The notes beneath the pieces were generated by a model. The model was not told where the DNA came from and did no database searches. It was given only the letters and a program-made list of their open reading frames with translations. The translations under genes were made by a program, and so were the position numbers. This document shows, piece by piece, positions 25,130-54,362 of a stretch of DNA of 64,000 nucleotides. This DNA is from a virus (lineage: Duplodnaviria; Heunggongvirae; Uroviricota; Caudoviricetes). The number at the start of each line of letters is the position of its first letter. Within the stretch, counting starts at the first letter, position 1. The stretch spans positions 127,171 through 191,170 of the IMG/VR virus record IMGVR_UViG_3300028833_000001; one strand, written 5' to 3'.

Positions 25130-25770
25130 TATATATGGACTGACAATGTGCTATACTGACAACTGACAAAGTGTCATACTGACAAAGTGTCAGGTACTCC
25201 CACCTATATGGGTAGGGTATGGTAGGTGTCCCCTCCCTCCCTAACTCCCCGCAGGCAAAAACCCAAAATAGCACCGCACAGTTGCTTCCGAGAATTTTAC
25301 CCAATTTTTTCGATTTTTCCAGGGGGGGGTCTTTTTTTATTCAAAAGGTACTCCTTTTTTCAAAAATTTTCCATATAAAAATTTCAATTTTTCAAAGTGT
25401 GGGCCAATTTAATTTCAATAGGTACTCCTTTTTCAAAAAAAATTCCACATATAAATTTTCAATTAAATTTCGGCTTTATACGTTGATTATTAAAATTTTT
25501 GTTAATGACATAGACGTTGACCTATAGATAATAAAAAAGGGCGAATCTCTCAGATTCACCCGTTATACAAACAGTTTTGTTGTATATTCCATCCAATCTC
25601 AAATGGATAGAGCTGCACCATTACGAAGTTTTATATTTCATTATTAATTTACTAATACTATTATACAATAAAATAAATTAAAATCCAAACCATTTTCACA
25701 ACATAAATTTAATTTCAATAGGTACTACTTTCTGAAAAAATTTTCCATGGTAAAAATTTGAATTAAGATT
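25130..25770. repeat. non-coding region with iteron-like direct repeats: 3 copies of ~50 bp (GGTACTCCTTTTTTCAAAAATTTTCCATATAAAAATTTCAATT) at ~25347-25395, 25404-25470 and 25704-25770; ACTGACAA x4 at 25139-25190; a C-rich block and a G8 tract
   Basis: Seen directly in the sequence. It separates the promoter array from the next gene block, so it is a candidate origin or regulatory region. Confidence 0.6.
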
Positions 25771-26977
25771 AATTAAAATCTTTTATTACTTTGGATAAAA
25801 ACGATTTATCGTCAATATTTTTTGAATTTTTGATTTTGTTTATAGCCAAGTGTAATCTTGAATCATACCTATACTGTTGTATTTGTTGTAATTTTCGTAT
25901 TGATGTTATGTCAAATGTTGATAAAACATCGTAAGTGTTTTTTGTAATATAATCTTTAAAAGCGTCAGACATTTTTCTAATTGTTTCACAAGCATGATTA
26001 TTTCTATAATCTATGGCATCTTGTAGGTTGTCAAAGCAACCGACATTAGTAATTGCTGCACCGTGTTTATCTTTTTCATGTTCAGTAGTTGTTGCAATCC
26101 AACGCCCATCATCAGTATGTCTGATACATTGGCCAACATAATAATACTTATCACCAAATTTTTTAAAATCTTCCTCATTTAATGCATAATTTGCGACATT
26201 TTGAACTCTTCTGTTTAGTGCTTCTGGCAAGTAGCATATTGTATCTGGTCCTAAGGGTTGCTTCTCAAGTCTTAATACATCACAATTAACGCCCATTGGA
26301 TATTTCTGACTTTTTGGTTTATGTTTTTTAACATATTCATAAAATGAATATAAGTCATCGAAATTACCATAATCAGCAGGTTGTTTTGTTTTTGAAATTA
26401 TATTAGAATAGAAAAAATTAAAATCATCAATCATCACATAATGAGAATTTTGTTTATTTTGATTGGTTTGTTTTTCTTGAACGTTAACAGTTTGTTTTAA
26501 GGTAGGTTGTTTGGTTTCTTGTTTCTTTTTATTTTTCTGATTTTCTTCTAATTTTTCTAATTTTTGTTTAATGTCTTTTATTGTTTTAATAAGGTATTCC
26601 ACATCACATTTGAACCATTCGTTTCCAAAGTTGGCTCTTTCAATGTTGTTTTCTAAAAGATGTTTGTGTATTGTTTTGTCTGTAATGCGCATCCATTGCT
26701 GTTTTCTACCAGACCAATACATAGCGCTTTCCGTATAGAGTAGAACATAATCAATACCCGCTGTTTTTGTATATGTGTCAATTCTAGCTATAGCACATTT
26801 ATTTAACGATTCGCTGTTTGGTTTGTCAAGCATGTTGCTTGGGTCGGCAAAAGAAGTTTCGCCGATTTTAATATAACAATTATGCTTTTCATCTGGAATG
26901 GTAAAAGCATATATCAATTTTGGATTGTGATTATGTTCATATCGAGCCATTAATAGAAAAATAAAATTAAAATCCAA
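25769..26977 (-). CDS. GIY-YIG/T5orf172-like N-terminal domain protein with a Lys-rich linker and an unknown C-terminal domain
   Basis: N-terminus LIYAFTIPDEKHNCYIKIGETS resembles the GIY-(10)-YIG module. Linker: KLEKLEENQKNKKKQETKQ. Confidence 0.35.
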   Translation of the reverse strand: MDFNFIFLLMARYEHNHNPKLIYAFTIPDEKHNCYIKIGETSFADPSNMLDKPNSESLNKCAIARIDTYTKTAGIDYVLLYTESAMYWSGRKQQWMRITDKTIHKHLLENNIERANFGNEWFKCDVEYLIKTIKDIKQKLEKLEENQKNKKKQETKQPTLKQTVNVQEKQTNQNKQNSHYVMIDDFNFFYSNIISKTKQPADYGNFDDLYSFYEYVKKHKPKSQKYPMGVNCDVLRLEKQPLGPDTICYLPEALNRRVQNVANYALNEEDFKKFGDKYYYVGQCIRHTDDGRWIATTTEHEKDKHGAAITNVGCFDNLQDAIDYRNNHACETIRKMSDAFKDYITKNTYDVLSTFDITSIRKLQQIQQYRYDSRLHLAINKIKNSKNIDDKSFLSKVIKDFN

Positions 26978-41113: not shown

Positions 41114-41452
41114 ATGGGTAAAACGAATAAAATAATTATATCAGAATCTAATTTACGCGATTTGGTTACTGAATGTTTTGAAAAATTATTAAAAGAAGTT
41201 ATTGGCTCTTATAACGGACACTTCGGAATGGACAACAAACACTCGATAGAAAGAGTTGCTGATGCTTTGTCTAAATTTGATGATGCTATGATATCTGATA
41301 CATACACTAATAATAATAGAATTGTAATTGAGTTTAAACCAAATTCAACACATATAAATCAAGTAATTGACATGATGAAAGAATATGGCTATAGATATTA
41401 CTCAATGAACAGTACAACATCTAAAACATTGGTTGTTTTCAAACGTAAATAA
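41114..41452 (+). CDS. hypothetical protein with the recurrent N-terminal motif
   Basis: Starts MGKTNKIIISESNLRDLVTECFEKLLKEV. Confidence 0.5.
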   Translation: MGKTNKIIISESNLRDLVTECFEKLLKEVIGSYNGHFGMDNKHSIERVADALSKFDDAMISDTYTNNNRIVIEFKPNSTHINQVIDMMKEYGYRYYSMNSTTSKTLVVFKRK

Positions 41453-41580: not shown

Positions 41581-42408
41581 ATGAGTGTGTTTGAAAGTGA
41601 TGATAAAAAATTAATATCTCCAGAAGAAGCTAAAAAATTAGGGTTTGCGATACCTGATGAAAATCTTATCGGTTACGTTGACGGTGAATTTGTTATACCA
41701 ACAAATATAGGTGTTGGTTATAAAGTGTTTGAGCTGAAAGACGGTAAATTATATCCTCCAATGGTTAGAAACGCCAACAACTCTAACACCGAGATTGGTG
41801 TTTGGATACCAGCAAGTACACCTCCAGTTGTTGGCTATACAGCAAAAGAGCATAGACCTCAAGTAGCTGCAAAAGGTTCCACAAGCAAGACGTTAAGTTT
41901 TAGACCTGGTTGGCATCTTGGTAAATTACCAATAGCGTTACAATTTATAAAAAAACACAATAAAAAGCCTATGCTATATAAAGGACGGTTCGTTTGGCCA
42001 TCAAATTTAGTTTGGGCAAAATGCTATTATAGTAAAGACATTGATTATCAAGAAGCAGCTATGAGTTATGGAAAAACAAAAAATGGTGGATTTATTCATA
42101 GCAGAGCTGGTCTTCCAATGGTGCCGAAAAACGGAAGTTATGAGTATAGAACAAATCCAGACCCAAAAACAGAGGCTTGGGTTATTACTGGGGCCATGAA
42201 AATTGTTGATATTTTGTCTTTCGATGAAGTTGATAAAATTTTAACCGATAATGGTATTACGCCTCCAGTTGTAATGACAAACGATGAAATTAAAAAATAC
42301 AGGGAAAAATTAAAAGAATCACCTATTGAGATAGATGAAAATAAGATGAAGGAACTAGTACACGATGTGTTTAACAAACTTATTTTGGAAATATTAAATT
42401 CTAATTAA
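41581..42408 (+). CDS. hypothetical protein with the recurrent motif at its C-terminus
   Basis: Ends ...IEIDENKMKELVHDVFNKLILEILNSN. A terminator follows at 42446-42475. Confidence 0.5.
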   Translation: MSVFESDDKKLISPEEAKKLGFAIPDENLIGYVDGEFVIPTNIGVGYKVFELKDGKLYPPMVRNANNSNTEIGVWIPASTPPVVGYTAKEHRPQVAAKGSTSKTLSFRPGWHLGKLPIALQFIKKHNKKPMLYKGRFVWPSNLVWAKCYYSKDIDYQEAAMSYGKTKNGGFIHSRAGLPMVPKNGSYEYRTNPDPKTEAWVITGAMKIVDILSFDEVDKILTDNGITPPVVMTNDEIKKYREKLKESPIEIDENKMKELVHDVFNKLILEILNSN

Positions 42409-42478
42409 ATTTGTCAAAATAGTGGTGGTAAATAATGTTAAAAAAAATGGGCCCATGTTTTAGGGCCCATTTATTATT

Positions 42479-42985
42479 TTATTTTAATGAATCTCTAACT
42501 TTATCTAAAACTTTACCCAAAAGATTTTTGCCTTTCCATGTTGATTCGTCATCTGATGCCGTTTTAAAACTAACCCCTATGCCCCATATTTTATCGTATG
42601 GACTACCTTCGACAAAATGCTTATCAGCTATTGTTTCATCCATTAATTTTTCAAACAAGTCTCGGTTTTGGGTATATTTAAGGTAATTAGCATCAAACAT
42701 TATATTTTCTTTAACTTCATTCCATTTCTTATCATCGTAGTTTCTTACTAGTCTACCAAGTCTTTTAGCTTCTTTTGGGTTCGAACCATTTTCAATTATT
42801 TCGTGCGCAATATCAATGTCGTTAAAGTATAAGGCTTTTAGAAACATAAAATATTGTTCTGTATTATAAAACATATATTCAGTATTGTTTATTGTCGCAG
42901 TGAATTTTGACGGATACCAATTTGACGGCCATCCGAACCAGAAGAATATATGTTTATCAGTTACTCGTATGTTTTTATCGTTCAT
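42479..42985 (-). CDS. NADAR (YbiA/DUF1768) domain protein
   Basis: FFWFGWPSNWYPSKF...EYMFYNTEQYFMFLKALYFND...EAKRLGR...EGSPYDKIWGIGVS matches NADAR signatures. Confidence 0.7.
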   Translation of the reverse strand: MNDKNIRVTDKHIFFWFGWPSNWYPSKFTATINNTEYMFYNTEQYFMFLKALYFNDIDIAHEIIENGSNPKEAKRLGRLVRNYDDKKWNEVKENIMFDANYLKYTQNRDLFEKLMDETIADKHFVEGSPYDKIWGIGVSFKTASDDESTWKGKNLLGKVLDKVRDSLK

Positions 42986-43039
42986 ATAGTTTTTATATAT
43001 ATTTGTATATTATTATCATTTTTTACGATTAACGTGCAA

Positions 43040-44405
43040 GAAAGCCCACTGCTTTAGCTGTGGGATGAATTGCACTCTATTATAATATACATTTTTTTTG
43101 AAAAAACAAAACTTTTTTAAAAAACACACTATTTATAAGTACATGATACAGTACAGGACATATACAATCAGGCTGTTTCCGAACAGGGAGCAGGAACAGG
43201 AACTCAAAAACCTGTCCCTTGCAAGGAACACATTGTACAACATGCTTGTCGGAATCGAACAGAAAACCTACGAAGAGACCAGAAAAATAAAAACCGAGTT
43301 CGACCTCGACAGGGATATCACTGTGCTGCGAAAAGAACACCCGTTCCTGACCAAACTCAACTCCAAGGCGAGCCAAAGGGTCGCCAAGGAGGTGTATTCA
43401 GCCTATAAATCGTTCTTTAGCCTTGTCAAAAAGGACAATACAGCGAAGCCGCCTCAGCAGATAAAAGACGTGGATAGGTTCCATACTGTGGCATACAACC
43501 AGACTGGCTGGAAGTTTATCAGTGAGAACATCTTGAAACTGAACGGTTTAGTCGTGAACTACAAGGGAATCCCTGGCATGGACTACAAGTTCATGTCGAT
43601 TAAGGAAGTCAAGCTGAAACGTGTGAATGGCAAGTATCTGCTGGACTTGGGTGTGGCAAACAGTGTGGAGGAAAAACAAACAATAACCAATGAAAACAAG
43701 GTGCTTGCGATAGACCTCGGACTCAAGAACCTTTGCAACGGCGTGGACAACATAGGCTCAGTTGTAGTGTTACCAAACAAAGCCAGAAGAATAAACAGGT
43801 ACTTCAGGAAACAGATATCGGCTATACAGTCGAAGATGGACAAGCGCATCAAGGGCAGCAGCCGACACAGCAAGCTTAAAAAAACGAAAAGGAAACTGTA
43901 CAACAGAAGGAACGCACAAATAAAACAGACTCTGCATATCCAGAGCAAAAAACTAGTGGATATGAACTACAAGACGATTGTAGTTGGTGACTTGAGCGTG
44001 AAGAAGCTGATGGAGAAGGGGAGCAACAAGCTGACCAAGACTTCCAGAAGCTTCAGCGAATCATCTATAGCCACATTCATGGAATACCTTGCATACAAGT
44101 GCCAGAACAGTAACACGGAGCTGGTGACAATCAACGAGATGTGGACAACACAGCAGAACTGTCTGACAGGCAAGCTGTTCAAGGAGAAGGTCGGATTGTC
44201 CGACAGGACTGTCATGCTTTCGGATTCCATAGAGATAGACCGTGATTTGAACGCCGCAATCAACATAATGAAGCGGTACGAGCAGAATCACCTTGCGCTG
44301 CTGACAGCGCCGCTGGATGTTTCCAGTGTGGTCAACAGGCACAACCTGTTGACAGATACGTGTTCTTGAAAGAAGTCAAGAACCCCACGGTTTCAACCGT
44401 GGGAG
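43040..44405 (+). mobile_element. IS200/IS605-family TnpB-only (IS1341-like) insertion, with GC content above the surrounding DNA and subterminal hairpins at 43044-43065 and 44384-44403
   Basis: Right end: CCCACGGTT-TCA-ACCGTGGG immediately 3' of the tnpB stop. Left end: GCCCAC-N10-GTGGG. No tnpA is present. Confidence 0.7.
43143..44369 (+). CDS. tnpB: TnpB (OrfB_IS605) RNA-guided nuclease-like protein; the RuvC motifs are intact but the zinc-finger cysteines are lost
   Basis: MIQYRTYTIRLFPNREQ (OrfB N-terminus), DLGLKN (RuvC-I), DRDLNAAINIMK (RuvC-III). The CxxC..CxxC region reads QNCLTGK...LSDS. The start was taken at Met16 of the track ORF. Confidence 0.8.
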   Translation: MIQYRTYTIRLFPNREQEQELKNLSLARNTLYNMLVGIEQKTYEETRKIKTEFDLDRDITVLRKEHPFLTKLNSKASQRVAKEVYSAYKSFFSLVKKDNTAKPPQQIKDVDRFHTVAYNQTGWKFISENILKLNGLVVNYKGIPGMDYKFMSIKEVKLKRVNGKYLLDLGVANSVEEKQTITNENKVLAIDLGLKNLCNGVDNIGSVVVLPNKARRINRYFRKQISAIQSKMDKRIKGSSRHSKLKKTKRKLYNRRNAQIKQTLHIQSKKLVDMNYKTIVVGDLSVKKLMEKGSNKLTKTSRSFSESSIATFMEYLAYKCQNSNTELVTINEMWTTQQNCLTGKLFKEKVGLSDRTVMLSDSIEIDRDLNAAINIMKRYEQNHLALLTAPLDVSSVVNRHNLLTDTCS

Positions 44406-44443
44406 TATGTCAGTATTGTACATTATTTTTTTGTTTAATACAA

Positions 44444-44734
44444 CTATTTTGGGTATTGTAGTATATCATTAAATTTTGTATCAATAATAGTACATATATT
44501 AAATGGTACTATTGATATGCATTGCCCTCCAGCAGCCAATAGCATATTTTCATTGTCATTAAACGTATCTAATCTTTTTTGTTTTAACGATTCCGCAATA
44601 TTTGGATTGTCTAAACACTGCTTGGCGTATTTATCCCAATGTTCAGAGACATCTTCTTTGGTTTGTGGGTAAAAAAACCAATCTTTAAATGCATCAGAAT
44701 CTTGATTTAATTTAATTTTTACAAATTTATACAT
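44444..44734 (-). CDS. hypothetical protein
   Basis: 96-aa ORF. Confidence 0.4.
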   Translation of the reverse strand: MYKFVKIKLNQDSDAFKDWFFYPQTKEDVSEHWDKYAKQCLDNPNIAESLKQKRLDTFNDNENMLLAAGGQCISIVPFNICTIIDTKFNDILQYPK

Positions 44735-44807
44735 ATGTTTTATTATAAAAATAATAAAATATAGAAAATAGTAAACTAAAAGCTATTTATGTAAAATTAC
44801 TTTAATT

Positions 44808-45644
44808 ATGGGATTTATTAATAGTATAATTCAATTTTTCCGTGATTTGTTTTGTAACGAAAAAACAAACACAGAGACTGTAGTCACAATAAACGAGACT
44901 GATTCTAAGGTTTCTGACGATACTACTATTAAAGTGGAAAACAATGTTGAAACTGACGAAAAAGATAACACTATCAACGTTGAAAGTGCTGATGAACCAC
45001 AAGATTTGGGGCTTAAACAATTTCACGTACTGATTGATAACGGCCACGGTAAAAATACTAGTGGAAAGGGTAGCCCGTATTCGTTGGCAGGTGTTGAACC
45101 AAAGTTGTCATATAAAGAATATGCATGGGCAAGAGAAATAGCTGGTATGATTGAGGCTGAATTAAGTAAGCACGGAATAAACGCAGAAAGAATAGTTCCA
45201 GAAGAAACGGATATTACACTAACAGAAAGGGTCAGAAGGGTTAATACTAAGTGTAATTTGTACGGCGTTAAAAACACCATTTTAATATCAATACACAGTA
45301 ACGCTGCTGGCAACGGATTAAAGTGGATGACTGGACGCGGATGGAGTGCTTATACAAGTAAAGGCCAAACTTCTGCCGACATTCTTTGTGAATGTCTATA
45401 TAAAGAAGCAGAAAAAAACTTTAAGGGTATGAAAATCAGAAAAGACACGACTGATGGCGATAGCGATATGGAAGAAAATTTCACGATGTTAAAGAAAACA
45501 TCTTGCCCAGCAGTTTTAACAGAAAACTTCTTTCATGATAACATAGAGGACGTTGAATTTATTACATCTGATATCGGCAAAAATGCAGTTGTTAAAACTC
45601 ATGTTGATGGTATAATAGAGTATTTTAAACAAAAAATAAAATAA
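44808..45644 (+). CDS. N-acetylmuramoyl-L-alanine amidase (Amidase_3), a putative endolysin
   Basis: FHVLIDNGHG, ISIHSNAAGNG and LTENFFHDN, with a ~70-aa acidic N-terminal extension. A terminator follows at 45652-45677. Confidence 0.75.
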   Translation: MGFINSIIQFFRDLFCNEKTNTETVVTINETDSKVSDDTTIKVENNVETDEKDNTINVESADEPQDLGLKQFHVLIDNGHGKNTSGKGSPYSLAGVEPKLSYKEYAWAREIAGMIEAELSKHGINAERIVPEETDITLTERVRRVNTKCNLYGVKNTILISIHSNAAGNGLKWMTGRGWSAYTSKGQTSADILCECLYKEAEKNFKGMKIRKDTTDGDSDMEENFTMLKKTSCPAVLTENFFHDNIEDVEFITSDIGKNAVVKTHVDGIIEYFKQKIK

Positions 45645-45691: not shown

Positions 45692-46153
45692 TTACTTCTT
45701 TTTGTTTTTAGTCACTTTAATTGTTGTTTCTTCTGGTTCGCAATCAGTTTCCATTACATTTGTTTTCTTTGCTGTAATTTTAAGTTTTCCATCTTTACAT
45801 AGTTTAGCTTCTAGTGTTGAAGCATCAGCATCGTTTGGCAATGTGGTTGAAAAGTATGTTGAATTTTTGCAACTATGATTGTCATCTGACCACTCATAAT
45901 CACTTGAAATCTCAACAACATTCATTCCATCATTTTCGTCTACGTTGACTTTGATGTTTGAATCTTTGGCATTTGGCCCAAAGGCTGTTTCCATAACGTA
46001 TTCTCCATCAATTTCCTGGAATCCATCAATCTTGGAGGATGGTACATTCAAATTATCATACAAATCTGAAAATTTTAAACTTTTAAAGTCAACATTGCAA
46101 ATGTCATCAATAAGCTTATCAATAAAGCTTGATTTTTTTGTTAAATTACTCAT
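45692..46153 (-). CDS. Hsp20/alpha-crystallin-like small heat-shock protein
   Basis: ACD-like core (FQEIDGEYVMETAFGP...IKVNVDENDGMNVVEI...AKLCKDGKLKITAKK). Confidence 0.45.
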   Translation of the reverse strand: MSNLTKKSSFIDKLIDDICNVDFKSLKFSDLYDNLNVPSSKIDGFQEIDGEYVMETAFGPNAKDSNIKVNVDENDGMNVVEISSDYEWSDDNHSCKNSTYFSTTLPNDADASTLEAKLCKDGKLKITAKKTNVMETDCEPEETTIKVTKNKKK

Positions 46154-46179: not shown

Positions 46180-46398
46180 TTAAGATAGTCTTCTACTAAT
46201 ACGACCTTTTGTTAAATCGTATGGCGACATTTCAATAAGGACCTCATCGCCTTCTATTACTTTAATTCTATTTTTTCTCATTTTGCCACTTAAAACACAT
46301 AATATTGTGTGGCCATTTTCTAGTTCCACTTTAAACATTGTGTTTGGTAGTGCTTCTATAACTGTTCCTTCAATTTCTATTGGTTCTATTTTTGCCAT
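46180..46398 (-). CDS. infA: translation initiation factor IF-1
   Basis: [67 protein letters not shown] is collinear with bacterial IF-1 (S1-like OB fold). Confidence 0.9.
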
Positions 46399-47569: not shown

Positions 47570-47782
47570 TTAAATTACTCTATTCGAATTGCATTTCAAT
47601 GGTTTGCCACCAAATTTCAATGACCACACATTTTGTGACATATCTGATGAATAATTACTATCAAATAACTTATATATTGAAGCAAAATCATAAGAAACGT
47701 CACCACCGAATGTAATATAGTCATAATAATCAAACACCGAATCAGTGTCAGAAGACATTTTTCTAAATCTAGTTAACCCCAT
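47570..47782 (-). CDS. hypothetical small protein
   Basis: 70-aa ORF. Confidence 0.35.
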   Translation of the reverse strand: MGLTRFRKMSSDTDSVFDYYDYITFGGDVSYDFASIYKLFDSNYSSDMSQNVWSLKFGGKPLKCNSNRVI

Positions 47783-49365
47783 TAATTTTGTATTTCTTGT
47801 TTTATTTTTTTTAATTCTGTATATAGTGAAATAGAGTCAACCCCATACTGCTTTGGACTAAATTCTTTTTCTGAAATAAAGTTTAACGACAATTTAGGTC
47901 TAGTAGACATTACATATAGCAAATGTTGCTCTTCTTCAATTTCCCAATCTAGTTCTGCAAATCTACTTGGTATTAACGATGGGCATAGAATAAAAACATT
48001 ATCAGCTTCCATGCCCTTAGCCCTATGAATAGTCGAAAGCATCACTCCGTCAGAAGTTTCATCTTTAAACACATCTTTAATAAACAATTCCAATTCATAT
48101 CTATTTGTTACTGTTTTAGGCAACGATTCCATGGTTCTTATGGTGTCTAATAACGAAGCAAGTCTTTTATCGTTTGAGGCTTCTTGTTCGTTTTCACCAT
48201 TTATTTCTTGGATTTGTGACCACATATCAATAAGTACGTGTTTCATTTCGAGTATCATTCCTTCTACATCGTCGCTCTCTGTACAATCAGTTGCTAATAT
48301 AATATTTCTACCAAGTTCCTCGCTTATAAAATATGCTTTCTGACCTATTGAGATTAATTGTCTATAAAGTCTCATTAGCGGGGCTATGTTTCTGCATAAA
48401 ACCATATCGTTGTTTTTAATTGCAGTCAATTGAACATCAAAATTAACGGAGCCGTCTATTGCGTCATCTTTTGCATGTATATTATTATTTGTATATTGTT
48501 TTGCATATTCTATAATTTTTTTACCACATCTGTAGTTTGTTGTTAACGGAAGTTCTACGGCATCACGTCTAAATGTTGTTGGGTCTTGTAAATGCTCGAA
48601 CGAATCGGTATCACTACCGCACCATGAATTAATTGTTTGGTCTCTATCGCCAAAAGCGAAAAGCCTGGTATTTCTCTTAAAACACCTACTAATAATATCT
48701 TGTTGTGCAATAGATGCGTCTTGAGCTTCGTCAAGCATTATAACATCAGCTAAATATTTTTTTGTAAAGTATCCATACTCAGAAGGAAACCATAGTAAAT
48801 CTTGATAATCAACCACATCTATAACGGTTTCACCCCATTTTAACACTTTTGCAACGCACTCAAACTCGTTGGCTATACTAGTTATGCCGTATTTTTTTGT
48901 TGCTAGTTTTCTAATTTCTTTTTCTGATTGTTTAAGATTATGCCTAGCCTTGTTGATTAAGTCAAATACAGTTGCTTTATAAGTGGATTTTGAGTTTTTA
49001 TCTAACGAGATGTATTCTTCACCGCCTAATTCGGTTATATTTGCATTTACGTATTTTCTATATTTATCGTCATCTATTGTAGGCTCTAAGTCAAAGTGTT
49101 CGGTAAACATTCTCCATGCTAGTCCGTGTAATGTATATATTTTTATGTTATCACTATTACCTATTCTTTGCTTAAGTGTATCTCTCGTAGACCTGTTATG
49201 AGCTAAAATAAGTACTTTTTTTGCTGTGTCAATTCTATTTGCACATTCTACTAATGTAGTAGTTTTGCCAGCACCAGCAACTGCTTGTACTATAAGGTTT
49301 AGCACCCCCTTTTCGGCTTGTTCAAAAATATCTTTTTGCTCTTGGCTATATTCAAAATTTGACAT
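47782..49365 (-). CDS. UvrD/Rep/PcrA-like SF1 DNA helicase
   Basis: Motif I AVAGAGKTTTL, motif II VIMLDEAQD and downstream SF1 motifs. Confidence 0.75.
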   Translation of the reverse strand: MSNFEYSQEQKDIFEQAEKGVLNLIVQAVAGAGKTTTLVECANRIDTAKKVLILAHNRSTRDTLKQRIGNSDNIKIYTLHGLAWRMFTEHFDLEPTIDDDKYRKYVNANITELGGEEYISLDKNSKSTYKATVFDLINKARHNLKQSEKEIRKLATKKYGITSIANEFECVAKVLKWGETVIDVVDYQDLLWFPSEYGYFTKKYLADVIMLDEAQDASIAQQDIISRCFKRNTRLFAFGDRDQTINSWCGSDTDSFEHLQDPTTFRRDAVELPLTTNYRCGKKIIEYAKQYTNNNIHAKDDAIDGSVNFDVQLTAIKNNDMVLCRNIAPLMRLYRQLISIGQKAYFISEELGRNIILATDCTESDDVEGMILEMKHVLIDMWSQIQEINGENEQEASNDKRLASLLDTIRTMESLPKTVTNRYELELFIKDVFKDETSDGVMLSTIHRAKGMEADNVFILCPSLIPSRFAELDWEIEEEQHLLYVMSTRPKLSLNFISEKEFSPKQYGVDSISLYTELKKIKQEIQN

Positions 49366-49571: not shown

Positions 49572-50318
49572 ATGGTTCCAACAGAAGAATGGGTAGAAGA
49601 AAATTTTTTTAAATACAATAGAATATATTTTAACGGAGAACTTCCAACCCCAAGAATTATAGTTTCTGAAGATTGCACTTATAATGGCGAAGATTGTTTT
49701 GGATATTACAGCCTATTTGGGTGCAGATTCGATAAAATCAATAGAAAAATTATTAGTTTACGAAATAATGGTACATTATGTATTTCGTCAAAATATGACA
49801 GACCAGAAAAAGATATAATAGGAACATTGTTGCACGAAATGATACATGTATATGTTAACCTTTGTTTATTAGTGTATCCTAAAAATCCTCATGGTAAAGA
49901 ATTTACAAAAATGGCAAATAAAATAAACGCAGATGGGTGGGATATATCAGAGTCAAATGAGATGGGTGCTGGATTTGTTGCTGGTTCTGGAGGGAGTGAT
50001 GGCTCTGGCAGTCAACCAGTTTTCGGAATATTATGTCTTATTTACAAACCAACTGGTACTGATTATAAATATTGGTTTTGCAGGGCTGAGCCAAATCAAT
50101 TTGATGCAATAAGACATACAGCGTCAACGTGGGGTTCAGATATACAAGTACATTTTTACCAGACAAAATCATCGAAATTGATGTCACTTGAGGCTAACGT
50201 AGCAACACTTCCTGGTTTTGGTTCAATGAACGTTAATGATGCTATACGTAATTTGGCTAACTTTTTAGGTGAATCTATTGACGTTTTTTCAACTCATAAT
50301 TTACAGAAAATAAACTAA
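49572..50318 (+). CDS. SprT-like zinc metalloprotease domain protein
   Basis: N-terminus FFKYNRIYFNGELPTP...LLHEMIHVYV (SprT_N with HExxH) plus a Gly/Ser-rich linker. Confidence 0.55.
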   Translation: MVPTEEWVEENFFKYNRIYFNGELPTPRIIVSEDCTYNGEDCFGYYSLFGCRFDKINRKIISLRNNGTLCISSKYDRPEKDIIGTLLHEMIHVYVNLCLLVYPKNPHGKEFTKMANKINADGWDISESNEMGAGFVAGSGGSDGSGSQPVFGILCLIYKPTGTDYKYWFCRAEPNQFDAIRHTASTWGSDIQVHFYQTKSSKLMSLEANVATLPGFGSMNVNDAIRNLANFLGESIDVFSTHNLQKIN

Positions 50319-50693: not shown

Positions 50694-51287
50694 TTATTTT
50701 GAGGCCCTTTCTTTTAATTTATTCTTTAATACCAACGCATAGTCCTTAAACGGCTTTTGTTGCTTGTTCCCTCTGTATAACCACTTTTTAAAAATTGGTA
50801 TTGTAACTTTTGTTATTGCCATAAATCCATGCCAATTTTTACTATAATTTGATAAGTATGCTTTTTTTGCCTCTTCTTTTGATAAAAATCCCAACATTAC
50901 TTTGCTTTCATCGAAACTTCCGTCTTTTCCTTTTTGGTCAACAACAAAAACATGTTCAAAGTCATCGACATGATTACCAATGAAAACGTCTACAGCGTCA
51001 CCGTCTTTTCCGTTTCCGCTTGTATTTTTGAAATATCCATAATGGTTCTTCATTGTTGTATGGCCTTCTTTTCCGTTTTGGTCTTTCCATTTTCTAATAC
51101 TACCCTTTGGGTTTTCTATGGAAATACCCATGCCTTTTATGTATATATGCCCATGTTTGTAGTTGTTTGCGCTGATTTGCAATTCTGTTGGGTTTTGATT
51201 TGCATCATACGCCCTTTCTTCAATATCTGACTGTGATATTTCGTTTAAAAGATTTTTAAACTGAGTCTGAGTTAATATAATATCCAT
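50694..51287 (-). CDS. hypothetical protein with the recurrent N-terminal motif
   Basis: Starts MDIILTQTQFKNLLNEISQ. Confidence 0.5.
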   Translation of the reverse strand: MDIILTQTQFKNLLNEISQSDIEERAYDANQNPTELQISANNYKHGHIYIKGMGISIENPKGSIRKWKDQNGKEGHTTMKNHYGYFKNTSGNGKDGDAVDVFIGNHVDDFEHVFVVDQKGKDGSFDESKVMLGFLSKEEAKKAYLSNYSKNWHGFMAITKVTIPIFKKWLYRGNKQQKPFKDYALVLKNKLKERASK

Positions 51288-51812: not shown

Positions 51813-54362
51813 CTATCTAACAGTAACACATTCATCGTTTTTATTGATTTCTGCATAAAATACATGCTCGTTGTCATATGTGTTTTCTATTAGTAAATCA
51901 GTTATCTGATTTTCAATAATATCCTGAATTGCCCTTATAATTGGCCTTGCACCATATTCTTTGTCATTTTTAATATATTCTAAAATATAATCTATTACGT
52001 CATCTGATATTGAAAGACTATAACCTATATTGTTTAGACGTTCTTTTAATTTATTAATTTCCAAATTAATAATTCGTTTTAAATCATCATCACTTAATTG
52101 ATTGAAATATACTATATTATCGATTCTGTTTAAGAATTCTGGCGGAAATTTCGACTTCAAATGTTTTATTAGTATTTTTTTCGTATTTTGGTCTTTGTCT
52201 TCATTAAATCCTATTCCGTTTCCAAATTCGCCAGCACTTTTTACCCCTATATTTGATGTGAATATAACTATAACGTTTTTAAAATCAATTTTTTGGCCAG
52301 AATTATCAGTTAAAAAGCCTTCATCTAATACCTGCAAAAATACATTATATATCTCTTTATCTGCTTTTTCTATTTCATCAAGTAACAATATGCAATGTTT
52401 TTTATTTTTAATGGCCTCAGTCAATTGACCACCTTCTTCATATCCAACATATCCTGGGTTTGAGCCTATTAATTTGTTTACCGCTACTTTATCTGAAAAT
52501 TCAGACATATCAAATCTAACAAGAGACTTTTCATTTCCGAATAATTCTTTTGCTAACTTTTTGGCCAAAAGAGTCTTACCAACTCCAGATTTTCCAATCA
52601 TCATTGCACTGAACATGCAACCATTTTTTGTTAGACCGACCCTATTTCTCTTTAACGCTTTGCACACTGTGTCAATTGCTTCGTCTTGCCCAATTATTTC
52701 ACTTTTTAGTCTATCGTTAATTGTTGCCAATTTTTGTTTATCATCAGAAGTTAGATTTGTAATTGGTATTCCAGTTTTTTTTGATACTATTGTAAGTATA
52801 TCATTAACCCCTATAGTCGACGGATTGTTCTTTTTGTCTTCCATCATCTTTTCTTTAGCTTTGTTAAATGAAACTTTTAGCCAAGACAAATATTCTTCTT
52901 TTTTATTACTTTCTTCGTAATCCCCTTTCTTTTTACTGTTGGCAATTTCAGATTCTGTATACTTAATTTTATTTCTGAGGATTCTAATATTTTTTGGTTC
53001 ATTACCTGTTCCAATATAAGCACCTGTTTCATCAAGTATGTCTATGGCTGAATCTGGTAAATTTCTTTCTGTTATATACTTGTTGGCTAGTTTTACACAT
53101 GATTTAATGGCGTCATCTGTATATTTCACACCGTGAAAATCTTCATATGATTTTCTAATACCAAACATGATGTCAATGGTTTCAGAAACTGTTGTTGCTT
53201 CAACTATTATTTTTTGAAAGCGTCTTGCTAATGATGGGTCCTTATCAAACGTCTTTCTATACGACATAAAATCTGATGTCCCTATAACCTGTAATTCCCC
53301 AGTTTCCAATGACCTGGATAACATTGCGGATATTTCATAATCGTTTTTTCCTTTATCAGCTAAAATCGCCCCAATATTGTCCATAAACAAAATATATTTG
53401 TTATTGGCCTTTATTTCGTCTAATATTCCTTTTACCCTCTCTTCAAACATGCCTCTAAGTGTGGTCCCAGCCATAAGCGCTGTCATGTCCAACGATACTA
53501 TTTCTTTGTCTGATAAGAAACCAGGTACATCGCCATTTATTATTTTAACTGCTAAATATTCTCCAATAGCTGTTTTTCCTACTCCCTCACCACCTAATAA
53601 TATTGCATTGTTTTTGTTTTTTCGGCCTAAAATTCGTATAATTTCTTCCATTTCCTTTTCTCTTCCGATTAATGGCGATATTTTGCCTTCTTCTGCTAAT
53701 CTATTGAGATTAGTACAATAAGACTCTATGTATGAACCAGAATTGCCTTTTTTTGTTGGTGCCATGTTTTGAGTAACTGTTGCTGTTATTTTAACAGGAT
53801 TTATTTTTTCATTTTGAACTTTGTTTTGTTGGCCTAATTTTTCCTCTGTGATTTCTGACTGTAATTGTGACCTTAAATTAGCGTATGTAATCCCGCCAGA
53901 TTTTGAAAATACACTCCTTATTGTGTTGTTTGGTGAATCATCTTTTAGTATTGCCAGAAAAATTAATTCTGTGGTTATTTTGTCTGATGTTAAACTTATA
54001 GCCTCTTCATTCGCAGTAACTATTGCGTTAAAAAAATTTTCACTCATTAAAGGCTCACGATTTGGCTTTATAGCATTTAATGATTTTGATGATAGCTTTT
54101 GATACCATGTATCATAAATTGAATCTAACGAGCTTGACATCAATTGATTATTAAGTCGTTTGTACAATAGATTATTTTTATCTGAAATACACGCAAATAT
54201 AAAATAATCTAAATCAATAACCAACGTTGGAAATTCTTTAATCAAGTCATCCTTGCACATGTTCAAAATTCTTAAACACTCTTCTGAAAAGCTTAAAGTG
54301 TTCACATGTTTTGTGCTTTTAACTATTTTTATTTCGTCCATAATATTAATGTGTAATTTCAT
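51813..54362 (-). CDS. ClpA/ClpC-like Hsp100 ATPase with two AAA+ modules
   Basis: D1: AILLGGEGVGKTAIGEYLAVKIINGDVP and SLARRFQKI. D2: MIGKSGVGKTLLAKKLA, RFDMSEF and GSNPGYVGYEEGGQLTEAIKNKKHCILLLDEIEKA, collinear with ClpA/ClpB. Confidence 0.8.
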   Translation of the reverse strand: MKLHINIMDEIKIVKSTKHVNTLSFSEECLRILNMCKDDLIKEFPTLVIDLDYFIFACISDKNNLLYKRLNNQLMSSSLDSIYDTWYQKLSSKSLNAIKPNREPLMSENFFNAIVTANEEAISLTSDKITTELIFLAILKDDSPNNTIRSVFSKSGGITYANLRSQLQSEITEEKLGQQNKVQNEKINPVKITATVTQNMAPTKKGNSGSYIESYCTNLNRLAEEGKISPLIGREKEMEEIIRILGRKNKNNAILLGGEGVGKTAIGEYLAVKIINGDVPGFLSDKEIVSLDMTALMAGTTLRGMFEERVKGILDEIKANNKYILFMDNIGAILADKGKNDYEISAMLSRSLETGELQVIGTSDFMSYRKTFDKDPSLARRFQKIIVEATTVSETIDIMFGIRKSYEDFHGVKYTDDAIKSCVKLANKYITERNLPDSAIDILDETGAYIGTGNEPKNIRILRNKIKYTESEIANSKKKGDYEESNKKEEYLSWLKVSFNKAKEKMMEDKKNNPSTIGVNDILTIVSKKTGIPITNLTSDDKQKLATINDRLKSEIIGQDEAIDTVCKALKRNRVGLTKNGCMFSAMMIGKSGVGKTLLAKKLAKELFGNEKSLVRFDMSEFSDKVAVNKLIGSNPGYVGYEEGGQLTEAIKNKKHCILLLDEIEKADKEIYNVFLQVLDEGFLTDNSGQKIDFKNVIVIFTSNIGVKSAGEFGNGIGFNEDKDQNTKKILIKHLKSKFPPEFLNRIDNIVYFNQLSDDDLKRIINLEINKLKERLNNIGYSLSISDDVIDYILEYIKNDKEYGARPIIRAIQDIIENQITDLLIENTYDNEHVFYAEINKNDECVTVR

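Follow-up and report, generated by a model that had tools for sequence, protein, structure and literature searches.

Enzymes of the NADAR superfamily remove ADP-ribose (ADPr) from guanine, and the described members include antitoxins associated with the toxin DarT1 as well as phage counter-defence factors named AdfN. All NADAR subtypes assayed hydrolyse guanosine-ADPr and none hydrolyses thymidine-ADPr (PMC11543638, PMC11125620). The nearest characterised relative of the protein described here is AdfN-Bas60 (bas60_0111 of Escherichia phage PaulScherrer, Bas60; MZ501100), which counteracts DarT1 in E. coli, lets RB69, T5 and Bas25 form plaques again on DarTG1 hosts, gives no help against the thymine-modifying DarTG2 (tested with T5), and clusters with bacterial NADARs that are neither DarT-associated nor YbiA (Johannesman et al., Nat Commun 2025, PMC11825919). 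Here we describe a stand-alone NADAR gene in a stretch of 64,000 nucleotides of tailed-phage DNA (Caudoviricetes; IMG/VR record IMGVR_UViG_3300028833_000001, positions 127,171 to 191,170), hereafter the window. Its product is probably an AdfN-type enzyme, which would reverse DarT1-type guanine ADP-ribosylation of phage single-stranded DNA (ssDNA).

Three NADAR types have been distinguished by the residue at position 125 of the Phytophthora nicotianae enzyme (PnNADAR): Glu in the YbiA type, Asp in the DarT1-associated BC4488 clade, and His in T4-like phage NADARs (PMC11543638). PnNADAR itself is eukaryotic, is not DarT-associated, and hydrolyses guanine-ADPr in vitro (PMC11543638). The DarG1/DarT1-associated NADAR antitoxins (E. 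coli C7, Geobacter lovleyi; BC4488 clade) adjoin DarT1 in the genome, carry a basic N-terminal DNA-binding extension and a catalytic Asp (D171 in E. coli C7), and neutralise the toxin enzymatically, without binding it. AdfN-T4 (gp30.3) belongs to the same superfamily as the window protein and shares with it the proposed role of an orphan anti-DarTG1 hydrolase. It is fully effective only in T-even infection, and Ala substitutions of its E36 and K43 impair counter-defence, the mutants being no longer fully active. E. coli YbiA (COG3236) gives no DarT1 protection in cells. Our comparisons with validated AdfN proteins covered AdfN-Bas60 and AdfN-T4.

The gene under study lies as follows.

42479..42985, minus strand: gene for a stand-alone NADAR-domain protein; ATG at 42985, stop TAA at 42479-42481, 168 codons (168 amino acids)

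A sequence-only reading of the window had singled out this interval for its NADAR/YbiA signatures. A single open reading frame (ORF) fills the interval exactly; it is encoded on the minus strand, which that reading did not give. The signatures are borne out by Pfam, NCBIfam, a PDB sequence search, and an AlphaFold2 (AF2) model searched with Foldseek. Family matches are far above chance. Pfam NADAR (PF08719, DUF1768) is matched at E=4.7e-45 and 154.2 bits (gathering score 35.1), the alignment spanning residues 18-168 of this single-domain protein and positions 11-163 of the 163 in the profile. NCBIfam TIGR02464 ("riboflavin biosynthesis intermediates N-glycosidase", the YbiA/COG3236 domain) scores 139.5 bits against a cut-off of 73.7, and PHROG 1017 is matched at E=3.9e-49 and 167.9 bits. 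Among PDB sequences, PnNADAR (8BAU) matches best, at E=3.9e-20, with E. coli YbiA (2B3W) next at E=2.3e-4. The window protein is a member of the NADAR/YbiA superfamily, and its gene is intact, with a complete ORF and every conserved residue kept. An identical protein is found on several metagenomic contigs, independent of one another and as long as 361 kb, so the source is a jumbo phage.

An AF2 model, built from a 100-sequence alignment of database homologues, has a mean predicted local distance difference test score (pLDDT) of 97.1 and a predicted template modelling score (pTM) of 0.91. It contains six helices and strands at residues 6-8, 12-15, 28-32, 35-39 and 123-126; as modelled, the protein adopts the YbiA-like fold, an alpha-helical core between two small beta-sheets. 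The best Foldseek match in the PDB is again 8BAU, a NADAR with bound ADPr, at a template modelling (TM) score of 0.88, a root mean square deviation of 2.3 Å, E=9.5e-13 and 32% identity. YbiA (2B3W) comes second with a TM score of 0.71, and nothing else in the PDB was significant. The oomycete protein differs in an insertion of ~20 residues after its WGIG motif, absent from the phage protein.

The ADPr contacts of PnNADAR are E43, K50, R79, W89, R93, E125, D130 and W133 (Schuller et al. 2023, PMC11543638). Residue numbers in the 8BAU chain run two higher than in that paper, and all eight named residues were confirmed on the alignment. Their equivalents in the window protein are E43, K50, R78, W88, K92, E126, D131 and W134. 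Seven of the eight contacting or catalytic residues are thus identical to those of 8BAU, the eighth being a conservative change, K92 for Arg, at a position that is R or K among the 100 homologues. That alignment shows no variation at E43, K50, W88, E126 or D131, and conservation of 90% or more at R78 and W134. The counterparts of E43 and K50 are E36 and K43 in AdfN-T4 and the residues of the same numbers in PnNADAR. Missing catalytic residues had been named beforehand as grounds for abandoning the counter-defence idea; the residues are present.

The residue that defines the NADAR types is Glu126 in the window protein and, as expected, His in T4 gp30.3 on our alignment. By these sequence comparisons, the protein is a new, fairly divergent member of the Glu-type branch to which AdfN-Bas60 and PnNADAR are related, and belongs to neither the DarT1-linked Asp type nor the T4 His type. 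Its identity to AdfN-Bas60 is 43% (E=6e-35). Both are stand-alone phage NADARs (183 residues in AdfN-Bas60, 168 here), both fall into phrog_1017 (170.4 and 167.9 bits, respectively), they have a common Glu-type active site (E, K, R, W, R/K, E, D), and neither has an adjoining DarT gene. AdfN-Bas60 differs in two short insertions, in having Tyr, not Trp, at window position 134, and in its source, a 150-kb E. coli myovirus as opposed to a ~361-kb jumbo phage with a probable Bacteroidota host. Its activity against DarT1/DarTG1 has been demonstrated, whereas the window protein is known from its sequence and a model. AdfN-T4 is more remote: BLASTP found no similarity between it and the window protein, it belongs to another PHROG family (652), and it has His at the equivalent of position 126. 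In a neighbour-joining tree, rooted on T4 gp30.3 as outgroup and, being based on rough BLOSUM distances, meant for orientation only, the window protein groups with metagenomic jumbo-phage homologues and with NADARs of rumen Prevotella/Bacteroidales. Outside these branch AdfN-Bas60 and PnNADAR, with YbiA more distant still.

The window is phage DNA, encoding a tail-fibre-like protein, a DNA helicase, an N-acetylmuramoyl-L-alanine amidase, a dUTPase and a sigma factor, and a megablast search with the segment at 38-48 kb matched none of 50,697 phage records. When 86 non-overlapping window ORFs were scanned with Pfam, no ADP-ribosyltransferase, DarT, macrodomain, SIR2 or Nudix family came up, so within the 64-kb window the NADAR is an orphan. 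The DarG1 antitoxin type, with which the protein shares its fold, was rejected on two grounds: no DarT gene lies in the window, and Glu126 stands where these antitoxins have their catalytic Asp. No DarG1-type structure was retrieved from the PDB at E<=1, either with the single sequence or with a family profile; the profile search returned only 8BAU (E=5.6e-38) and YbiA (E=2.8e-15), which argues that the DarT1-linked antitoxins are not close relatives. The NADAR-containing defence system DS32_2 (NCBIfam NF053876) was rejected at 56.7 bits against a cut-off of 240. The PADLOC candidate PDC-M42 was also rejected: the match to PDC-M42C (122.8 bits) is a domain-level likeness, and no partner was matched among the four neighbour proteins scanned.

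Family, fold, active-site conservation, homology to a validated AdfN and the lack of a partner toxin gene in the window all support an AdfN-type function. In the proposed scheme, a host transferase of the DarT1 kind, or another guanine-specific ADP-ribosyltransferase, would ADP-ribosylate guanines of the phage ssDNA at their N2 amino groups, and this modification would block phage replication. The phage enzyme would hold the ADPr moiety in its conserved helical pocket, where E43 and E126 would contact the distal ribose, and K50, R78, W88, K92, D131 and W134 the pyrophosphate. Hydrolysis of the N-glycosidic bond between ribose and guanine would then yield unmodified DNA and allow replication to resume. 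The protein would in this way serve as an orphan, antitoxin-like counter-defence factor that does not bind a toxin. We infer the substrate, the timing of expression and the matching host toxin in this scheme; we hold its chemistry with more confidence than its biological role, which we regard as probable, at a moderate level of confidence.

The sequence-only reading had likewise proposed that a phage NADAR removes ADPr from guanine in DNA and so protects against DarTG-like toxins, an idea that restates published biology of the AdfN family. Its chemical part agrees with the activity described by Schuller et al. 2023 (PMC11543638). Its biological part holds for the guanine-modifying DarT1 and has to be narrowed accordingly, as it does not extend to the thymine-modifying DarT2, protection having been shown for DarT1 only (PMC11825919). 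By analogy with the characterised enzymes, the activity of the window protein would not reach thymine lesions.

Several observations weigh against an anti-DarT1 function. YbiA and T4 gp30.3 both hydrolyse guanosine-ADPr in vitro and yet fail to rescue uninfected cells from DarT1 (PMC11125620); specificity in vivo differs among NADARs and is not predictable from activity in vitro. At residue 126 the protein has the Glu of the YbiA family and not the Asp of DarT1-associated antitoxins. Relatives of the gene occur in NAD-salvage/RNA-ligase and SIR2/2H-phosphoesterase contexts that are compatible with a metabolite- or RNA-directed role. Finally, a TnpB element has inserted just upstream of the gene, making its expression in this genome uncertain.

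The elements that flank the gene directly are the following.

~43015..44414: TnpB-only IS605-family element of ~1.4 kb; tnpB ORF at 43098..44369, plus strand, with a probable ATG at 43143
42986..43014, minus strand: short AT-rich leader upstream of the NADAR start, with no Shine-Dalgarno motif
42445..42472, both strands: terminator-like GC-rich hairpin, AAATGGGCCC-loop-GGGCCCATTT, an inverted repeat flanked by T-runs on both strands
44444..44734, minus strand: 96-amino-acid gene, on the far side of the TnpB element from the NADAR gene

The TnpB protein has OrfB_IS605, Cas12f1-like TNB and HTH_OrfB domains, and its element fills the spacer between the 96-amino-acid gene and the NADAR gene. A related contig, L013, encodes a NADAR of 69% identity and is syntenic with the window (order UvrD, AAA, IF1, HSP20, amidase, 95-amino-acid gene, NADAR and, further on, dUTPase). 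There, just 47 bp separate the 95-amino-acid gene from the NADAR gene and the spacer is uninterrupted. Aligning the two shows that the ~1.4-kb element in the window is inserted into this spacer; it is a recent arrival that parted the NADAR gene from its upstream neighbour. The leader is the part of the original spacer left before the element boundary, whose position is approximate. A search of 185,579 species genomes confirmed no relative of this TnpB. For TnpB-associated or cis-regulatory RNA, an Rfam scan covering 42300-44900 gave only chance-level matches, well under the gathering scores. A TAnnTTTG motif is present at 42998 (plus strand), ~100 nt upstream of tnpB.

The contrast between a ~1.4-kb insertion here and a 47-bp spacer in L013 could be taken to mean that the NADAR gene is a silenced remnant, severed from its promoter and without a part in infection. 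We consider this very improbable. The ORF is intact with all its conserved residues, the identical protein recurs on independent contigs, AT-rich promoter-like sequence is left upstream, and a terminator follows the gene. The terminator lies 7 nt past the NADAR stop codon, is common to the convergent gene at 41581..42408 (plus strand), and was called on both strands by a terminator scan with 0.4 expected per shuffle.

In three more distant jumbo-phage contigs, the NADAR (57-61% identical) lies within a conserved same-strand block together with Isochorismatase (nicotinamidase-like), NAPRTase, one or two RNA ligases, Metallophos, CTP_transf_like and PolyA_pol/HD (CCA-type) genes. The block appears to unite NAD+ salvage with RNA repair in one island. 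The related jumbo-phage contigs concerned are as follows.

L008:1-12504, L009:1-12516, L010, L011:1-11118 and L012: NADAR-block contigs, up to 404 kb

The closest cellular homologues, at 49-51% identity, come from rumen Prevotella/Bacteroidales genomes. Prevotella sp. tf2-5 (L017:35-7322) encodes a 293-amino-acid NADAR, with an extra C-terminal region of ~125 residues that has no Pfam match, directly after AddAB-like PD-(D/E)XK and UvrD-PDDEXK genes and before SIR2 and HAD hydrolase genes. In a Prevotellaceae metagenome-assembled genome (L016:5001-7111), the NADAR gene again follows AddAB-like genes and is succeeded by genes for a LigT/2H phosphoesterase and a HAD hydrolase. These contexts are reminiscent of the original "NAD and ADP-ribose" association, and keep open a role on soluble ADPr or on RNA adducts.

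They provide the support for an alternative in which the NADAR acts not on DNA adducts but on soluble NAD+/ADPr derivatives or on what NAD-dependent RNA repair leaves behind. Its substrates would be small molecules, produced by host NADase or signalling defences or in tRNA repair, whose N-glycosidic ribosyl bonds it would cut, and it would so aid phage NAD+ homeostasis. The partner genes that would make this case are nonetheless absent from the window and from L013: tblastn with the block products matched only L013-syntenic genes in the window, and the Pfam scans of the 86 ORFs found no NAPRTase, Isochorismatase or RNA ligase. Every assayed NADAR hydrolyses guanosine-ADPr, and the nearest characterised relative, AdfN-Bas60, works against DarT1. 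We know of no NADAR demonstrated to act on a soluble ADPr signal, and we consider this alternative unlikely.

A second alternative retains the de-ADP-ribosylase chemistry and changes the lesion. RNA or DNA would carry ADPr on guanosine or cytidine, put there by a transferase unrelated to DarT: pierisin/ScARP-like, YarT-like, or an undescribed defence ADP-ribosyltransferase of Bacteroidota. NADARs reverse guanosine-ADPr on RNA (PMC11833690), some of them, YbiA-type enzymes included, reverse cytidine-ADPr (PMC12945103), and the non-DarT toxin YarT has a YbiA-like NADAR as its antitoxin (PMC11125620). The window protein also has the Glu-type active site of clades that are not DarT-associated. That same active site, however, is enough for DarT1 counter-defence in the close relative AdfN-Bas60, and no alternative transferase candidate was identified in this analysis; we rate this alternative, like the soluble-substrate one, as a minor possibility. 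Equally doubtful, in our estimate, is a more general version in which the Glu-type NADARs of rumen jumbo phages are not primarily anti-DarT1 but belong to an NAD+ salvage/RNA-repair module, targeting soluble ADPr-derived immune signals or RNA guanosine/cytidine-ADPr from an undescribed Bacteroidota transferase, with the window copy a dispersed remnant of that module.

The preferred AdfN-type reading must also be set against a YbiA-type one. Here the protein would be an N-glycosidase that destroys reactive intermediates of riboflavin biosynthesis, encoded by an auxiliary metabolic gene with no defence role. The TIGR02464 score lies well above its cut-off (139.5 against 73.7 bits), E126 is the signature glutamate of the YbiA family, and many phage homologues are labelled "GTP cyclohydrolase II" or "N-glycosidase". 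We regard this as highly unlikely. The ADPr-bound oomycete NADAR (E=3.9e-20) is a far better match to the window protein than YbiA, whose similarity is weak (E=2.3e-4), and YbiA itself hydrolyses guanosine-ADPr in vitro (PMC11125620). The NADAR is unfused, Pfam scans found no riboflavin-pathway family (RibA/RibD) in the window, and LexA/dinG-type context is lacking as well. The "GTP cyclohydrolase II" labels are probably legacy annotation, apparently carried over from RibA-fused COG3236 proteins. Such a label, or "GTP cyclohydrolase", is borne by many of the phage homologues (records H4, H12, H24, H53, H72, H75-H77, H81, H86 and H88). Annotations of the homologues otherwise range over "hypothetical", "NADAR family protein" and "N-glycosidase", and one phage homologue match falls under a feature annotated "DNA methyltransferase".

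Homologues were found by tblastn in 740 phage records, all at less than 60% identity and the best at ~45%. They comprise 233 Staphylococcus phage records (those listed being phage K and relatives) and 118 Escherichia phage records, with further homologues in Listeria, Bacillus and Enterococcus phages and in Lak megaphages. According to Iyer et al. 2022 (PMC9503650), more than 48% of phages in the medium and jumbo size classes have NADAR domains, and the presence of one in a jumbo phage is therefore ordinary.

Of 70 predicted window genes, only 3 have AGGA, GGAG or GAGG among the 20 nt that precede the start codon. Shine-Dalgarno use is scarce in Bacteroidota. The paucity of such motifs, the Prevotella/Bacteroidales origin of the nearest cellular homologues and the apparently rumen-derived related contigs together suggest that the phage host is a member of the rumen Bacteroidota.

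Before the NADAR gene lie genes for a calcineurin-like phosphoesterase, an NT5C deoxynucleotidase, a dUTPase and two small proteins of unknown function. Beyond it come TnpB/OrfB_IS605, the 96-amino-acid gene, the amidase, HSP20, the IF-1-like protein, the AAA ATPase and the UvrD helicase, then SprT-like, InPase and ClpB-like chaperone genes. The features concerned are listed below, with one more distant gene.

25769..26977, minus strand: 402-amino-acid protein with a weak N-terminal T5orf172/MUG113 (GIY-YIG-like) domain (E=1.8e-4)
41114..41452, plus strand: 112-amino-acid protein, convergent with the NADAR gene; weak PADLOC PD-Lambda-3_A match (E=6.2e-5)
41581..42408, plus strand: 275-amino-acid protein, convergent with the NADAR gene; matches only phrog_30118 (unknown function)
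45692..46153, minus strand: HSP20
46183..46398, minus strand: IF-1/eIF-1a-family protein of 72 amino acids
46400..47524, minus strand: AAA ATPase
47782..49365, minus strand: UvrD-type helicase
49572..50318, plus strand: SprT-like metalloprotease-domain protein, near the UvrD-type helicase
50694..51287, minus strand: InPase, with a strong match to Pfam PF18823 (E=6.4e-48), near the UvrD-type helicase
51813..54362, minus strand: ClpB-like protein of 849 amino acids (AAA_2, AAA_lid_9 and ClpB_D2-small domains; labelled "ATP-dependent protease" in PHROGs)

The 275-amino-acid protein accompanies the NADAR on two further contigs (L001 and L002), and the 112-amino-acid protein resembles part of a 210-amino-acid protein in L013. 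HSP20, the IF-1-like protein, the AAA ATPase and the ClpB-like protein form a cluster of proteostasis and translation type that is unusual for small phages. The 402-amino-acid protein may be the product of a homing-endonuclease-like or DNA-binding gene.

The biochemistry of NADARs and their anti-DarT1 role are already established, and the present finding raises no new question about them. Its practical value lies in annotation, as many homologues are still recorded as "GTP cyclohydrolase II" or "hypothetical protein". If the proposed function is correct, the gene would be a divergent member of the AdfN type (best phage homologue at ~45% identity) from an uncultured ~361-kb jumbo phage, probably of rumen Bacteroidota. 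The anti-DarTG1 strategy would then reach beyond coliphages, and guanine-directed ADP-ribosylation of nucleic acids would be a form of immunity in gut and rumen anaerobes as well.

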